Shown: piece after piece, positions 1 through 5,372 of the stretch
Layout: the number at the start of each line of letters is the position of its first letter
Numbering within the stretch: the stretch's first letter is position 1
DNA from: a virus
Taxonomy: Duplodnaviria > Heunggongvirae > Uroviricota > Caudoviricetes
IMG/VR virus record: IMGVR_UViG_2671180758_000004
Direction: 5' to 3' (one strand)
Length of the DNA stretch: 5,835 bases
Program-made: the position numbers and the translations under genes
Notes under the pieces: model-generated
Database searches by the model: none
What the model was told of the DNA's origin: nothing
Seen by the model: the letters and a program-made list of their open reading frames with translations, nothing else

Positions 1-52
1 GGCGGCAGAGCAGTCACGGAGTAAAACTGATACCGCCAAACGTCACCAGAAA
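1..52 (-). ncRNA. dicF: DicF antisense sRNA, copy 1 (3' terminator U-tract lies beyond the left window edge)
   Basis: Minus-strand reading of 52..1 gives UUUCUGGUGACGUUUGGCGGUAUCAGUUUUACUCCGUGACUGCUCUGCCGCC, which I recognise from memory as DicF. It sits downstream of the ydfC-like gene as in the Qin dicB operon and is identical to copy 2 at 1633..1684. Confidence 0.75.
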
Positions 53-375
53 ATTGATAACAGAGGGCGTTGCAGCGGGGTTGTCACTTAAGCGTATGGT
101 CAACCTGACAACCCGGTGTCCTCAACGGGGGAAGGAATAACCCCGCCATACTTACCGCCGCGCCATTTCGCGGATTGCCACAACCGGAAGCGCACGGTCG
201 ACGAAAATTTAACGACAGGCTATCTATGAACCAGCTACCTCGCCGTGCGCTTTCGCGTTATGGTCTGACTTTTCATGGAAATATCCTTTCAGTAAACTGT
301 CAATGCCGGATGCTCACCCGTGTCCGGCGCACGCACTCCACCTCACCCGTGGAGAACTCCTTAATTACTAACCTT
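1..375. repeat. Direct repeat A1: DicF plus its upstream precursor/leader region (copy of 1633..2007)
   Basis: Positions 1..365 match 1633..1997 with only 2 mismatches (276 t vs 1908 g; 303 a vs 1935 g). Similarity decays over the next ~10 bp. The left boundary is not visible because the window starts inside the element. Confidence 0.9.
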
Positions 376-393
376 AGCTTTGTTGATTAGCTA

Positions 394-771: not shown

Positions 772-1008
772 TCACTCACCTGAGTTTCTTTCCAGCCAGC
801 GACGGGCACCATTTTCGGTTTTAAACGTTTTGCTTTTGGTATACGTCATCGCGGTGAACGTACCGTCCTGGTTGGGAAACACGCCGTACACCAGAGATTC
901 GTTGTTGCCAAGATCGATAGTATCCATGTTGACCTCATTTCCCCTTAACGCCGGGGTAGCGGAACAAAAACCTGCTGCATAGTTATTAAAGTTGAACCCT
1001 GCCGTCAT
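772..1008 (-). CDS. ydfA: YdfA/YdaF-family (DUF1391-like) small protein, copy 1; 78 aa from ATG 1008, or 51 aa if translation starts at the internal ATG 927
   Basis: ORF conserved in two copies (see 2605..2838). The internal Met at 927..925 has a GAGG RBS 5 nt upstream and gives the 51-aa size I recall for ydfA/ydaF. The long form starts 9 nt downstream of a GAGG. Confidence 0.7.
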   Translation of the reverse strand: MTAGFNFNNYAAGFCSATPALRGNEVNMDTIDLGNNESLVYGVFPNQDGTFTAMTYTKSKTFKTENGARRWLERNSGE

Positions 1009-1063
1009 GTTCTTACGCCTCGGGCTGGCTACTTAACCCCTGACCACTGCCTGGTAACTCGAA
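796..1063. repeat. Direct repeat B1: ydfA-like gene plus 55-bp 5' leader (copy of 2626..2893)
   Basis: 930..1063 is 100% identical to 2760..2893 (134 bp), while 796..929 differs from 2626..2759 at 13 positions (~90%). Confidence 0.9.
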
Positions 1064-1080
1064 TTTATTACGGAACTGTT

Positions 1081-1272
1081 TTAAAGACCTGCCGGGATTT
1101 CGTTATTATCCTGGTGAATAACTTTATCGACCGGGTAACAGTTACCGGGAATTTTCTGTTCGGTTGCTGCAGTCACACACTCCTGCATTGTCCTGTGAAC
1201 ACTGACTGCAATATCAACTGGCTCTCCGGAAACAAGAAAAACTGTCAGAACAAGTGCAAATGCTGTATTCAT
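1081..1272 (-). CDS. ydfD: YdfD-like small lysis protein (63 aa) with N-terminal hydrophobic segment (MNTAFALVLTVFLVSG...)
   Basis: 63-aa ORF starting at ATG 1272..1270, which overlaps the dicB stop as ATGA (translational coupling). N-terminal hydrophobic helix. Size and position after dicB match ydfD. The longer 81-aa track ORF (to 1326) would overlap dicB and is less likely. Confidence 0.7.
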   Translation of the reverse strand: MNTAFALVLTVFLVSGEPVDIAVSVHRTMQECVTAATEQKIPGNCYPVDKVIHQDNNEIPAGL

Positions 1273-1457
1273 TGCCAGCATCCTTTTTGTATCGGACGTA
1301 AACGGGCCAGCATTGAAAGAATGCATATTTTATTTAATAGCTCCCGTTCGTGTTTTCTCTTGTTAATGGCATCTTCAGTAAATACAGGGTTACTGATAGT
1401 GACACCAATTTCAAAACAACCTTCAGACGTATTAACGTTTGGTAATAACGTTTCCAT
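1269..1457 (-). CDS. dicB: DicB cell-division inhibitor (62 aa)
   Basis: Translation METLLPNVNTSEGCFEIGVTISNPVFTEDAINKRKHERELLNKICILSMLARLRPIQKGCWQ closely matches my recollection of E. coli DicB. GAGGA RBS 7 nt upstream of ATG 1457..1455. The 97-aa track ORF is an upstream in-frame extension with no RBS. Confidence 0.9.
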   Translation of the reverse strand: METLLPNVNTSEGCFEIGVTISNPVFTEDAINKRKHERELLNKICILSMLARLRPIQKGCWQ

Positions 1458-1626
1458 TATCGCGTCCTCAACAATGAATTTTGTGATGTGGTGCCTGGTG
1501 CCTCCAGGTGACGTTAACCAGTTAACAATTAACGCCGGATACAGAGAATCCACCCATAACACTGTTTTTGGTTTTAACTGTTCCGCGTGCGCTCAGCCGC
1601 ATTCACCGCATCACAAAATTCACTTT

Positions 1627-1684
1627 AAAAACGGCGGCAGAGCAGTCACGGAGTAAAACTGATACCGCCAAACGTCACCAGAAA
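1627..1684 (-). ncRNA. dicF: DicF antisense sRNA, copy 2, complete with intrinsic terminator (GC-rich hairpin then U-tract = complement of 1627..1631)
   Basis: Minus strand 1684..1627 reads UUUCUGGUGACGUUUGGCGGUAUCAGUUUUACUCCGUGACUGCUCUGCCGCCGUUUUU. It lies between a ~320-bp leader and dicB, as expected for DicF. The exact 5' end (RNase E processed in the known system) is approximate. Confidence 0.8.
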
Positions 1685-2007
1685 ATTGATAACAGAGGGC
1701 GTTGCAGCGGGGTTGTCACTTAAGCGTATGGTCAACCTGACAACCCGGTGTCCTCAACGGGGGAAGGAATAACCCCGCCATACTTACCGCCGCGCCATTT
1801 CGCGGATTGCCACAACCGGAAGCGCACGGTCGACGAAAATTTAACGACAGGCTATCTATGAACCAGCTACCTCGCCGTGCGCTTTCGCGTTATGGTCTGA
1901 CTTTTCAGGGAAATATCCTTTCAGTAAACTGTCAGTGCCGGATGCTCACCCGTGTCCGGCGCACGCACTCCACCTCACCCGTGGAGAACTCCTTAATCAC
2001 CAACCCT
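1633..2007. repeat. Direct repeat A2: DicF plus upstream precursor/leader region (copy of 1..375)
   Basis: See A1. The right end of A2 abuts the RBS of the plus-strand 91-aa gene instead of a ydfC 3' end. Confidence 0.9.
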
Positions 2008-2019
2008 CAGGAGGGTGAA

Positions 2020-2295
2020 ATGTCGACTGAAAATGATGAAATCATTAACTCCCTGATACGCCAGATTAATAATTTTGATAAAGCATTGCAACATGCTGCG
2101 GCGCGTAGTGATATAACTCTTTTAGCAATTTCATTTCTTGCATCTGTTATGGATAAAAATGAAGTCGTACGACAGAGTCTTGTTGATTATATCGACTCGC
2201 TTCAACCCGGCACTTTCAATCATGAGAGCTTCAATCATGAGAAAGAGCATGTTAAGTCTGTAATTAATTCTCTTATTTTGAATCAAAAGAATTAA
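2020..2295 (+). CDS. Hypothetical acidic small protein (91 aa), AT-rich cargo gene; function unknown
   Basis: ATG at 2020 preceded by a strong RBS, AGGAGG at 2009..2014 with 5-nt spacing. ORF ends TAA at 2293..2295 and is followed by an intrinsic terminator at 2323..2350. Local GC content is visibly lower than in flanking repeats. One short hydrophobic stretch (ITLLAISFLASVM), no clear transmembrane pair. Confidence 0.7.
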   Translation: MSTENDEIINSLIRQINNFDKALQHAAARSDITLLAISFLASVMDKNEVVRQSLVDYIDSLQPGTFNHESFNHEKEHVKSVINSLILNQKN

Positions 2296-2593
2296 TGCTT
2301 TTTGTTGCAAAGTAATTTTCAAGGGGTTCTATTCGAATCCCTTTCTTTTTCATTAACAAGCCAAACCCCTTATCAATGATGTCCATTAGATCCAGGAAGT
2401 ATTTTTCATGTAAATCCTGGTTATCAGAGAGCTGCTTCTCTTCGTACAGCCCGATAAAGGCTCGGCGTACGTTACCGGATATATTGTCGATGGTTTCTTT
2501 TTCTACGGTACTCAGGTCAAGAGTCGCCAGTTGAGAGCGAACCACATTCGATGCCATTTCCTGGAATGGTACTGGTAAATCTTTAAATTCCAT
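2273..2593 (-). CDS. Hypothetical acidic protein (106 aa from ATG 2593; 110 aa if started at ATG 2605 overlapping the ydfA-like stop as TGATG); function unknown
   Basis: Long ORF in AT-rich DNA immediately downstream of ydfA-like copy 2. A GAGG RBS lies 6 nt before ATG 2593. Its 3' end overlaps the convergent 91-aa gene by 23 bp. No family recognised by eye. Confidence 0.6.
   Translation of the reverse strand: MEFKDLPVPFQEMASNVVRSQLATLDLSTVEKETIDNISGNVRRAFIGLYEEKQLSDNQDLHEKYFLDLMDIIDKGFGLLMKKKGIRIEPLENYFATKSINSFDSK
2323..2350 (+). terminator. Rho-independent terminator for the plus-strand 91-aa gene
   Basis: Stem GGGGTTC (2323..2329) pairs with GAATCCC (2335..2341) as 7 bp including one G-U pair, with a 5-nt loop, followed by TTTCTTTTT (2342..2350). 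On the minus strand the hairpin would be followed by A's, so it is unidirectional. Confidence 0.6.
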
Positions 2594-2604
2594 CGTCAAC
2601 CTCA

Positions 2605-2838
2605 TCAGTCAGTGTTTCTGGTTAACCAGCGACGCGCGCCAGCTTCAGTTTTAAACGTTTTGCTTCTGGTATATGTCATCGCGGTAAACGTGCCGTCCTG
2701 GTTGGGAAACACGCCGCATACCAGAGATTCGTTGTTGCCAAGCTCGATAGTATCCATGCTGACCTCATTTCCCCTTAACGCCGGGGTAGCGGAACAAAAA
2801 CCTGCTGCATAGTTATTAAAGTTGAACCCTGCCGTCAT
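2605..2838 (-). CDS. ydfA: YdfA/YdaF-family (DUF1391-like) small protein, copy 2; 77 aa from ATG 2838, or 50 aa from internal ATG 2757
   Basis: Paralogue of 772..1008 with 6 amino-acid differences plus a divergent C-terminus. First gene downstream of the predicted early-left promoter, the position ydfA occupies relative to dicA in Qin. Confidence 0.7.
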   Translation of the reverse strand: MTAGFNFNNYAAGFCSATPALRGNEVSMDTIELGNNESLVCGVFPNQDGTFTAMTYTRSKTFKTEAGARRWLTRNTD

Positions 2839-2893
2839 GTTCTTACGCCTCGGGCTGGCTACTTAACCCCTGACCACTGCCTGGTAACTCGAA
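2626..2893. repeat. Direct repeat B2: ydfA-like gene plus 55-bp leader (copy of 796..1063)
   Basis: See B1. Confidence 0.9.
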
Positions 2894-2935: not shown

Positions 2936-2980
2936 ATAATGTACTTTGCGTTCATTGTTGTAAAGTACTTTTAGTACATT
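2936..2980 (-). promoter_or_regulatory. Predicted early-left (dicB-operon type) promoter with flanking GTAC-centred operator half-sites
   Basis: On the minus strand: -35 TTTACA (2964..2959), 17-bp spacer, -10 CATTAT (2941..2936). AATGTACT at 2938..2945 overlaps the -10, its inverted copy AGTACATT is at 2973..2980, and the palindrome AAAGTACTTT is at 2962..2971. Sequence-only prediction. Confidence 0.45.
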
Positions 2981-3054: not shown

Positions 3055-3474
3055 TTAAGAGGCTTTTTGTTTTTTCTTTCGTGCTAACTCTTCGTAAATT
3101 GCATTGTACTTCTGTTTTTTCTCTTCAAGAGTTTTTAAAAGTTCATCTGTCTCACTGTCAGGGAGCTCGTCCAGAAGGTCAATGATGATTTTTTGTCTTG
3201 GATTTAACTCCTGATAGAAACGTACCTGTCCACTTTCTTCTGTATCCTCTCCCAAAAGATAGGTTGGTGTTGTTCCTATTAGTGTTGCTAATTCCCTTAA
3301 TTTCTCCCGGCGAGGAATTGTTTCGCCATTAAACCATTTGCTAACCGCTTTTGGTGTTAATTTCATTCGACGGGCAATTTCTGCCTGCCTTCCATGTTGT
3401 TCATAACCAGCATTTTCACAGGCTAGCGCAAGCCTACTGGCGAACTCTTTACGCGCTTTATCTTCATGAACCAT
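3055..3474 (-). CDS. Prophage repressor, XRE-family HTH (RacR/DicA-like, 139 aa), no S24 peptidase domain apparent
   Basis: N-terminal HTH-like segment (QAEIARRMKLTPKAVSKWFNGETIP), charged C-terminal helix, AT-rich codon usage. Divergent from a Cro-like gene and upstream of a dicB-type operon. Weak RBS, consistent with repressor genes. Confidence 0.85.
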   Translation of the reverse strand: MVHEDKARKEFASRLALACENAGYEQHGRQAEIARRMKLTPKAVSKWFNGETIPRREKLRELATLIGTTPTYLLGEDTEESGQVRFYQELNPRQKIIIDLLDELPDSETDELLKTLEEKKQKYNAIYEELARKKKQKAS

Positions 3475-4301: not shown

Positions 4302-5372
4302 ATGGCTAACGCCTGGCTCAGATTATGGCATGACATGCCAAATGACCCTAAGTGGCGAACAATTGCCAGGGTGTCAGGGCAGCCAATTGCAACAGTGATG
4401 GCAGTGTATATCCACCTCCTGGTGAGCGCGTCACGAAATGTCACGCGAGGTCACATTGATGTCACGACAGAAGATTTGGCAAGTGCGCTCGACGTGACAG
4501 AAGAGGTAATTGATTCAATTTTGCAGACGATGCAGGGGCGGGTACTTGATGGTGATTTAATCACTGGATGGGAAAAACGCCAGGTGCTTAAAGAGGACAA
4601 CGGCAATATTTCGCAAACCGCAAAATCTCCTGCAGAGCGCAAGAGGGCGCAGCGAGAGAGGGAAAGAAAGCGGGAACAAAATGGCGATTGTCACGGCGCG
4701 TCACGAAATGTCACGCACATGTCACGACGAGTCACGACAGATAAAGATACAGATAAAGATACAGATCAAGAAGATCAAAACACTATGGTCCATGGCGTAA
4801 AAAACGCCACGAACCAGGCAGGGGATGTTCAGACCGTCAATCCTGGTCAGCCAGCAGGCACGACACCGGAAGCCGATTCAGCGTATGCGCTGAAAGCCGA
4901 TTCGGGCGCTGTGCAGCAGGTGATGACCGCAAGGCCGGAGCAATCACACCAACTGCAGCAGCCCGAAGCCGATTCCGCCATTCAGCGGGAAGCCGATCGG
5001 GTAGTCCCGGAAAACACCGGTCAGTCTGTGGGACGAGTGGATTATCCGGATGTGTTCGAACAGGTCTGGCGGGAGTACCCGTTGCGTGCCGGAGCAAACC
5101 CGAAGAAATCCGCTTTCAGTGCCTGGAAGGCCAGATTACGCGAGGGGGTGCCACCAGAGGCCATGCTGGATGGCGTGAGGCGTTACGCAAGATACTTGGC
5201 GGCTACCGGGAAAGCGGGAACGGAATTTGTTCAGCGAGCGACGACGTTTTTTGGACCGGACCGGAATTTTGAGAACCCCTGGTTTCTCCCGGTAAGCGGC
5301 ACGAACAACCAGCGTTGTGTGAATCATATTACTGAACCGGATAACGAAATTCCGCCGGGCTTCAGGGGGTAA
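4302..5372 (+). CDS. ydaU: YdaU-like phage replication initiator (lambda O-like role), 356 aa, with a low-complexity central linker
   Basis: ATG 4302 with AAGAGG RBS (4291..4296). Two iteron arrays and an AT-rich tract lie inside the coding sequence, as for ori-lambda inside gene O. Central region is charged and repetitive (ERKRAQRERERKRE, DKDTDKDTD, PEADSA repeats). Confidence 0.8.
   Translation: MANAWLRLWHDMPNDPKWRTIARVSGQPIATVMAVYIHLLVSASRNVTRGHIDVTTEDLASALDVTEEVIDSILQTMQGRVLDGDLITGWEKRQVLKEDNGNISQTAKSPAERKRAQRERERKREQNGDCHGASRNVTHMSRRVTTDKDTDKDTDQEDQNTMVHGVKNATNQAGDVQTVNPGQPAGTTPEADSAYALKADSGAVQQVMTARPEQSHQLQQPEADSAIQREADRVVPENTGQSVGRVDYPDVFEQVWREYPLRAGANPKKSAFSAWKARLREGVPPEAMLDGVRRYARYLAATGKAGTEFVQRATTFFGPDRNFENPWFLPVSGTNNQRCVNHITEPDNEIPPGFRG
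4426..4466 (+). repeat. Iteron array 1: four GTCAC(G/A) repeats in helical phase (4430, 4440, 4450, 4461), plus an inverted copy at 4493..4498
   Basis: Direct repeats spaced 10-11 bp. The 21-mer GCGCGTCACGAAATGTCACGC (4426..4446) is repeated exactly at 4696..4716. Confidence 0.8.
4690..4790 (+). other. Putative prophage origin of replication: iteron array 2 (five GTCACG repeats at 4690, 4700, 4710, 4721, 4731) followed by an AT-rich tract with tandem GATAAAGATACA x2 and two GATC sites
   Basis: Perfect 10/10/11/10-bp phasing of five identical hexamers. Adjacent AT-rich tract with GATAAAGATACA at 4740..4751 and 4752..4763 and GATC at 4764..4767 and 4773..4776. Architecture parallels ori-lambda inside the initiator gene. 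Confidence 0.7.

Follow-up and report, generated by a model that had tools for sequence, protein, structure and literature searches.

A convergent 91-amino-acid reading frame in the early-left region of a Rac/Qin-type prophage as a candidate allele of an exchangeable accessory-gene slot with a predicted embedded terminator

An open reading frame (ORF) of 91 amino acids (aa) is carried backwards within the early-left operon of a tailed-phage sequence (Caudoviricetes; IMG/VR record IMGVR_UViG_2671180758_000004), of which the whole analysed stretch of 5,835 nucleotides (nt) is called here the window. With moderate confidence, this ORF is interpreted as one allele of a polymorphic, moron-like slot for accessory genes in a dicBF-type operon, with an intrinsic terminator embedded in the coding sequence of the convergent 106-aa neighbour. 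What the analysis shows is the anatomy of the locus, the series of alleles found in related prophages, the coding-type constraint on the 91-aa ORF and the strand asymmetry of the hairpin. The elements involved are the following:

2020..2295, plus strand: the 91-aa orphan ORF, a convergent accessory gene (ATG at 2020, TAA at 2293..2295), taken from the ORF list and annotated by PGAP in identical DNA as a hypothetical protein (WP_000102678.1).
2009..2014, plus strand: Shine-Dalgarno (SD) sequence AGGAGG, read from the sequence, 5 nt ahead of the ATG at 2020.
2023..2270, plus strand: allele-specific cassette segment, delimited by DNA alignments; other sequence stands here in the 73-aa allele, and it is deleted in empty alleles.
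2273..2593, minus strand: the 106-aa gene of the early-left operon (ATG at 2593, stop at 2275..2273), phrog_6937, of unknown function (PGAP WP_001435739.1).
2273..2295, both strands: convergent overlap of the two coding sequences, 23 bp, from the ORF coordinates.
2321..2343, plus strand: stem-loop of a predicted intrinsic terminator, AAGGGGTTC-TATTC-GAATCCCTT, with the stem at 2321..2329 and 2335..2343.
2344..2350, plus strand: T-run TCTTTTT; read on the minus strand, it corresponds to the Lys codons AAA AAG AAA of the 106-aa gene.

The 91-aa ORF is probably a real gene, because its length has been kept, its ratio of nonsynonymous to synonymous substitution rates (dN/dS) is low, a deletion allele has remained in frame and the G+C content (GC) of the cassette is low. 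The gene is carried by 198 of the 5426 complete Escherichia coli genomes, in two alleles that are 86% identical and have equal ORF length despite 44 nucleotide differences; between them dN/dS is 0.28 for the annotated frame, the minimum of the six frames. The deletion allele lacks 15 nt, and the GC is 35% for the ORF and 35-38% for the cassette, compared with 55% for the DicF leader to its left and 47.5% for the whole window. Among 5.8 billion proteins, the only relatives of the product are Escherichia copies and fragments. A HMMER search against 1.8 billion representatives returned fragments of the gene itself plus one marginal match (E=6e-5) to an 1168-aa protein, and tblastn against 50,697 phage records gave no match. 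Four amphipathic helices are predicted for the product, and no hydrophobic segment of transmembrane (TM) length is evident from the sequence and the AlphaFold2 (AF2) model, no TM predictor having been run. In the literature, no mention was found of the protein accessions or of an RNA antisense to dicF or ydfC.

Some records annotate versions of this ORF of 145 or 162 aa (P0002; L004, coding sequence 2323..2760), and the annotated lengths (91, 145 and 162 aa) are inconsistent because the same frame continues without a stop into the DicF leader. Antisense to this leader, a long plus-strand frame is open at 175..390 and 1807..2019, the latter in frame with the 91-aa ORF. The upstream extension was considered as coding sequence and rejected, given the 1-nt indels found there between related loci. 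The SD itself lies inside a small predicted hairpin at 1997..2018 on the plus strand (CACCAACCCUCAGGAGGGUG, about -9 kcal/mol), right after two strong leader hairpins; this structure may occlude translation, or may merely be the complement of the structure of the DicF leader.

When the window is aligned with related loci, taken from complete genomes, draft assemblies and metagenomes, the DNA that separates the 106/124-aa gene from the DicF leader proves to be a polymorphic slot, which is found in four states within otherwise collinear loci:

State 1: the 91-aa ORF, two alleles 86% identical, in the 198 genomes.
State 2: a 73-aa ORF (phrog_7249, of unknown function), in 88 of the 5426 complete E. 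coli genomes; loci L037-L047 and L055-L056 (for example L041, 2865..3086, minus strand of the locus).
State 3: a 148-aa protein with two TM segments (phrog_6315), in loci L049, L050 and L052-L054 at 1654..2100, minus strand of the loci.
State 4: nothing, deletions having taken the SD and most of the ORF.

The 73-aa ORF shares its ATG, SD and leader (..CTCCTTAATYRCCAACCCTCAGGAGGGTGAAATG) with the 91-aa ORF, has an 11-bp overlap with the 124-aa gene and shows dN/dS values of 0.14-0.49; the 91-aa and 73-aa proteins show no homology. The 148-aa protein has a weak PADLOC match to the RT-associated SLATT model (E=0.0065, 14 bits) and is a candidate membrane effector in the position that sieB occupies in other lambdoid phages. 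Insertion or replacement is thus seen between genes that are adjacent in related phages, and the base composition of the insert is unlike that of its flanks, as in morons and other accessory loci. The occurrence of the hairpin in L037-L047 without any convergent gene was also considered, and was rejected when alignment showed the 73-aa ORF there. At the position of DicF, a different short hairpin-terminated sequence (GCACCTTTGGCGGCATCAGTTTTCATTGCTGGCTGATGTCCGCCC, L018 type) is found in L018, L031 and L015, about 200 nt left of the hairpin, and in L003 (O157:H7). It is not recognised by Rfam as DicF at the gathering threshold, and may be a DicF-like small RNA (sRNA) with a different seed, or a remnant.

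The convergent partner of the 91-aa gene could also be read as a 110-aa ORF from 2605, which is open too; PGAP annotates the 106-aa form in identical DNA. The family consists of a conserved core with C-terminal variants of 106, 109, 124, 126 and 133 aa, and the full-length 106/124-aa gene is present in 736 of the 5426 complete genomes. The AF2 model of the 106-aa protein (pLDDT 70) has a core of three helices and, at residues 93-106, a tail of low confidence; a Foldseek search of the PDB returned no match below E=0.8, and no Pfam, NCBIfam or PADLOC match was obtained. The original prediction, made from the letters of the window, had reported a convergent overlap of the 91-aa and 106-aa genes, and this is correct, with 23 bp shared at 2273..2295. 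The length of the overlap depends on the allele: it is 23 bp in the window, rises to 32 bp with the 109-aa / SLVLNQKN allele and falls to 11 bp with the 73-aa/124-aa allele, and 0 bp also occurs. The overlap of 23 bp looks like a recombination scar left by cassette exchange within the allele-variable C-terminal tail, because the end of the 91-aa ORF (its final 8 codons and stop) is located where the longer 124-aa allele has homologous coding DNA.

The hairpin and its T-run occupy codons 82-91 of the 106 codons of the minus-strand gene, so that its earlier placement within the last 25 codons or so was accurate, with coordinates now refined to 2321..2350. In a simple terminator scan the stem has nine pairs, four of them G-C and one G-U, and the loop has 5 nt; the U-tract, present on the plus strand only, contains 8 U in 9 positions if the closing UU of the stem is counted. 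The sequence features of an intrinsic terminator are found here together, namely a stem-loop containing G+C, a U-tract at its 3' side and a position shortly past a stop codon of the same strand: the hairpin starts 25 nt past the TAA at 2293..2295, and 91-97 nt past the stop in the 73-aa allele. The plus-strand RNA folds at -11.6 kcal/mol (z = -5.3), a value reached by none of 200 shuffled sequences. On the minus strand the fold is -8.9 kcal/mol and the T-run is absent; the hairpin is weaker there because the G-U pair turns into an A-C mismatch. When the peptide MKKKGIRIEPLEN was recoded, 0.2-0.4% of the synonymous versions reached -11.6 kcal/mol and about 1% formed a 9-bp terminator-like motif, in a test that is post hoc because the region had been picked for its hairpin. 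The stability of the hairpin depends on the rare codons GGG, CGA, ATA, CCC and CTT.

The same 44-nt hairpin region, without a single change, is found in loci that carry the unrelated 73-aa ORF instead of the 91-aa ORF. Since the 73-aa allele has it too, the hairpin is a property of the slot and did not arise for the 91-aa gene. Seven of nine haplotypes with an adjacent 91- or 73-aa ORF keep the stem intact, and all four empty-slot haplotypes have a weakened stem or a broken T-run (GGGGAGC; AAGTGG; AATGGG with TCTGTTT; a shifted register with TCTGTTT). From these sequence features, the hairpin is likelier to be a functional terminator than not. The assignment of this terminator to the 91-aa gene holds in that it is a credible intrinsic terminator on the right strand; the view of it as the terminator of that gene in particular does not, the same 44 nt being found next to the 73-aa ORF.

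The transcription of the slot has to be considered together with that of the operon around it. In E. coli K-12, the dicBF operon has been described as a single polycistron with a promoter upstream of ydfA and no internal promoter (PMC10448788). Because the K-12 homologue is one polycistron and a simple scan predicts no minus-strand terminator between 2272 and DicF (1684), the leftward operon transcript must, by this comparison, be antisense to the entire 91-aa gene and not just to its 3' end. The original prediction had described mutual antisense at the two 3' ends: an antisense relation does follow from the geometry, but it is not limited to the 3' ends, the operon transcript being expected to cover the whole 91-aa gene. 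As for the promoter of the 91-aa gene, the 5' region available to it is the complement of the DicF leader:

1684..2019, minus strand: leader of the DicF precursor, from alignment; its plus strand is the sole 5' region available to the 91-aa gene.

Compared with empty-slot loci, occupied ones have just 29 nt of their own ahead of the ATG, a stretch that holds the SD and is too short for a promoter. Since the cassette has no room for one, the promoter would lie in the antisense of the DicF leader or further left. The best plus-strand candidate is TTTTCA-17-TAAACT at 1902..1930 (8/12), in the shared leader antisense, and, if this is the promoter, the 5' untranslated region of the 91-aa mRNA would therefore be complementary to the DicF precursor. 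This leads to a further proposal, in which the slot acts in cis, through antisense RNA, to hold back the toxic dicBF operon: its mRNA would have two functions, with a coding part that is freely exchangeable (91-, 73- or 148-aa) and an antisense role that is kept. This proposal, to which only a small chance is given, comes from the lack of a promoter in the cassette, which would place the 5' end of the mRNA opposite the leader of the DicF precursor or opposite DicF. If it were true, an mRNA expressed in the lysogen would pair with the dicBF polycistron, and RNase III cleavage together with polymerase collision could then regulate the maturation of DicF and the expression of DicB.

Under the reading preferred here, that of an accessory-gene slot, the course of events can be pictured as follows. 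The 91-aa gene would be expressed in the lysogen and translated from the strong SD that the alternative alleles have in common. The hairpin and U-run (2321..2350), which lie toward the 3' end of the 106-aa gene, would most likely terminate its transcript, and this stop would keep rightward transcription off the pL-like promoter and the repressor gene. The coding overlap, judging from the alignments, would have arisen incidentally when cassettes were exchanged by recombination within the C-terminal tail of the 106/124-aa protein. Once the repressor is lifted, a leftward transcript would run antisense through the whole 91-aa gene toward DicF and DicB, and the 91-aa gene would be overridden and silenced. 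The interference would be expected to act by polymerase collision and by RNase III cleavage of duplex RNA, as a consequence of the layout and not as a dedicated toxin-antitoxin device. The promoter, the termination, the lysogen expression and the function of the gene are inferred.

Several results weigh against this reading or for one of its rivals. The hairpin might be a coincidental by-product of the coding sequence of the 106/124-aa gene (KKKGIRIEPL) that terminates nothing, the 91-aa transcript ending elsewhere, for example by Rho or further right; this is considered rather unlikely. Terminator-like motifs of the loose class occur in the window at chance level (7, against 6.4 +/- 2.5 in shuffles), and there is roughly a 5% chance that such a motif turns up on the correct strand no more than 100 nt from a given stop. 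The stem is modest, with its four G-C pairs and -11.6 kcal/mol, no extra conservation of the hairpin region over the rest of the 106/124-aa gene was found, and the hairpin stands next to different cassettes, its distance from the stop codon (25, 91-97 or 180 nt) changing with the cassette. The association between hairpin and slot is drawn from a small number of haplotypes that are linked by descent and recombination (Fisher p about 0.02, uncorrected), and it has exceptions: L028 combines the 73-aa ORF with a weak hairpin, and the Escherichia albertii loci L059 and L060 combine the 91-aa ORF with an altered hairpin of -7.9 kcal/mol. What speaks against coincidence is the unusually hairpin-favourable codon choice seen in the recoding test, the restriction of the G-U pair and the T-run to the plus strand, and the contrast between the degraded motif of the four empty haplotypes and its retention in seven of the nine that bear an ORF. 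A quite different doubt concerns the ORF itself, which might be non-functional, as a decaying remnant or a chance frame in AT-rich acquired DNA that pipelines call hypothetical. Such a frame would explain an orphan limited to Escherichia prophages and absent from the deposited phage genomes searched, with no match in Pfam, PHROGs, NCBIfam or PADLOC, and a poor single-sequence AF2 model (pLDDT 62; nothing below E=0.5 by Foldseek against BFVD). It would also fit the truncated allele in L011, the in-frame deletion allele, the inconsistent annotated lengths, and a search for plus-strand promoters at 1600..2019 in which none reaches 9/12. On the other hand, the SD is strong and correctly spaced, the ORF keeps its length and its six-frame minimum of dN/dS between the diverged alleles, a frame of 91 codons is improbable by chance at 35% GC, and a second ORF, under constraint of its own, starts in the same translation context; a non-functional frame is considered very improbable.

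The original prediction had also compared the layout with antisense-controlled toxin or exclusion modules. In that case the overlap would be a regulatory device by which one partner switches off the other, as in P22 sieB/sas or in type I toxin-antitoxins, an explanation that we regard as improbable. The position does have a precedent in the sieB genes of lambda and Rac: the 91-aa gene occupies the sieB slot of lambdoid phages, the control of sieB by sas is documented (PMC12197685, PMC7067206), one alternative allele of the slot encodes the two-TM protein with its weak SLATT-like match, and full antisense overlap with the operon transcript is unavoidable. No toxin or defence signature was seen for the 91-aa or the 106-aa protein. 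Searches of Pfam, NCBIfam and PADLOC matched neither of the two, similarity to SieB is absent, and the 91-aa protein is predicted to be helical and, from the same inspection, to have no long hydrophobic segment. As for an antisense sRNA, Rfam returned nothing at E<=1 for 1990 to 2600 and no known sRNA family for 1990 to 2350, and no sRNA-sized unit of promoter plus terminator was predicted. Moreover, the overlap of 0, 11, 23 or 32 bp according to the allele is explained by recombination, and the core of the 106-aa partner is retained with any cassette or none.

The closest known counterpart of the slot is that of sieB, which in lambda, P22 and the Rac prophage of K-12 stands in the same place and orientation, convergent to the first gene or genes after a pL-type promoter and abutting or overlapping their 3' end. 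The K-12 Rac record has racR, ydaG, ydaF (DUF1391), the convergent sieB with a 4-bp overlap with ydaF, the sRNA kilS and the division inhibitor kilR; the lambda record has cI, pL, N, the convergent sieB abutting N (0 bp overlap), ral and, further on, kil. Because the two records share this architecture, the 91-aa gene is placed in the sieB slot. The leftward neighbours are kilS and kilR in Rac and dicF and dicB here, in both cases an sRNA and a cell-division inhibitor, and exposure to the antisense early-left transcript is inherent in the sieB systems as well as in the 91-aa locus. The likeness does not extend to the products: SieB is a membrane protein of 162-192 aa, unlike the 91-aa product with its predicted helices, and no similarity to SieB was found for the 91-aa protein (BLASTP E=1.8) or for the 148-aa protein. 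The sieB gene of P22 is controlled by the antisense RNA sas (PMC12197685, PMC7067206); at the 91-aa locus, no exclusion phenotype, internal start of the esc type or sas-like RNA is known or detectable. In the K-12 Rac locus (L061, 2672..3312), the simple scan predicts no terminator for sieB within ydaF or ydaG.

Accessory loci of prophages are typically antisense to lytic genes, and the OOP RNA of lambda overlaps the 3' end of cII (PMC12197685, PMC7067206). Prophage morons resemble the 91-aa gene in being present, absent or replaced in collinear prophages, in their deviant GC, in lying antisense to the lytic early operon and in being followed by a predicted terminator (PMC7067206). Morons have their own promoter, however, whereas the 91-aa cassette brings an SD only, and their terminator is also their own, whereas here it lies outside the cassette, in the coding sequence of the neighbour, and is common to different cassettes. 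Another example is the lambda OOP/cII pair, in which a convergent transcript is complementary to the 3' end of an early gene, as at the 91-aa locus, and collision and cleavage of the duplex are expected (PMC7067206); interference between convergent units at their 3' ends has been reported in E. coli (PMC10349824). In contrast to the convergent unit described here, which encodes a protein, OOP is a non-coding RNA of 77 nt with a mapped promoter and a defined role. In addition, OOP/cII and other such pairs overlap at the 3' end, whereas the opposing operon here covers the convergent unit completely. Type I toxin-antitoxin loci of the hok/sok kind encode a small hydrophobic toxin, typically of less than 60 aa, and neither the 91-aa nor the (helical) 106-aa product is of this type; no counterpart of the dedicated cis-antisense sRNA of those loci was predicted at the 91-aa locus. 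Finally, the dicBF operon of Qin (ydfABC-dicF-dicB-ydfD) has DicF, dicB, DUF1391 and DUF1482 in the same order after a repressor of DicA/RacR type; K-12 Qin differs in having ydfB and ydfC, with no convergent gene between ydfC and dicF, where the window has the 106-aa gene and the backwards 91-aa ORF, and two DicF modules.

The layout is plausible but that of an ordinary prophage add-on, and what is new is an uncharacterised convergent accessory gene in the sieB slot. If the reading as an accessory-gene slot is true, the sieB position of lambdoid prophages would be a general plug-in site for genes expressed in the lysogen, with a fixed translation-start context and a common terminator borrowed from the coding sequence of the neighbour. 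This would give a simple rule for finding accessory and exclusion genes of prophages, orphans included, such as the 91-aa gene and its 73- and 148-aa alternatives, and DicF and DicB, two inhibitors of cell division that also change phage sensitivity, would come under an extra layer of control. In practice the gain would be modest, amounting to a few candidate genes and one testable terminator, and no new mechanism is revealed.

The window corresponds to the immunity-left region of a Rac/Qin-type lambdoid prophage of E. coli, with the gene order repressor, DUF1391 gene, 106-aa gene, DicF and DicB. The assignment is made because of the two copies of DicF, the DUF1391 gene, the helix-turn-helix (HTH) repressor, YdaT, DUF1482, the DicB translation and the identical DNA found in prophages. 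The features that surround the slot are:

1632..1683, minus strand: DicF sRNA (Rfam RF00039, 72.5 bits, E=4e-15), downstream in the minus-strand operon.
1..51, minus strand: second DicF copy (Rfam RF00039).
1269..1457, minus strand: dicB, a cell-division inhibitor, from the ORF translation METLLPNVNTSEGCFEIG... and the dicB annotation of related loci; downstream in the operon.
2605..2757, minus strand: DUF1391 gene (ydfA/ydaF-like), the first gene of the early-left operon (Pfam PF07151, E=9e-28; PGAP annotation).
3055..3474, minus strand: prophage repressor, HTH_3, in a DicA/RacR-like position (Pfam PF01381 and genomic context).
2936..2964, minus strand: candidate pL/dicBp-like promoter of the early-left operon, TTTACA-17-CATTAT (9/12, by consensus match only), adjoining operator-like palindromes.

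The components of a dicBF-type early-left operon are thus present (RF00039 twice, DicB, PF07151 and HTH_3) and stand in the order of K-12 Qin; genes of the YdaT and DUF1482 families are also recognised in the window by Pfam. DNA identical to 1990..2620 is carried by prophages of many E. coli genomes, and one such copy belongs to a prophage at ompW, flanked by an arm with integrase and exonuclease (plus dicB) and an arm with repressor, cro and ydaT; PGAP labels the products of both ORFs in it as hypothetical. At 2936..2970, palindromic repeats (GTACTTT...AAAGTAC and AGTAC) overlap the promoter-like site of the minus strand, and the same repeats were scored by the scan as a plus-strand "terminator"; they are probably operators together with the equivalent of the pL/dicBp promoter.

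The window contains two DicF modules in tandem, at 1..390 and 1633..2010, with 1..300 being 100% identical to 1633..1932, and the ydfA region is duplicated at 94% (784..1063 and 2614..2893). The order of the tandem is repressor, ydfA', 106-aa gene, [91-aa gene], dicF, dicB, DUF1482, ydfA, ydfB, ydfC and dicF, and the second module has no promoter/operator region. The exact arrangement of the window is intact in none of the 5426 complete E. coli genomes, the best match being a 96% mosaic, and the tandem could be a real product of unequal recombination or an assembly join. In the spacer between dicF and dicB (1425..1634, minus strand), Rfam scores STnc100 below its threshold (35.3 bits, the gathering score being 47; E=5e-5). 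Finally, two clusters of direct repeats containing GTCACG, at 4430..4468 and 4690..4738, lie within a gene for a 358-aa protein resembling replication organisers, and look like origin iterons inside an O-type gene, in the fashion of lambda.

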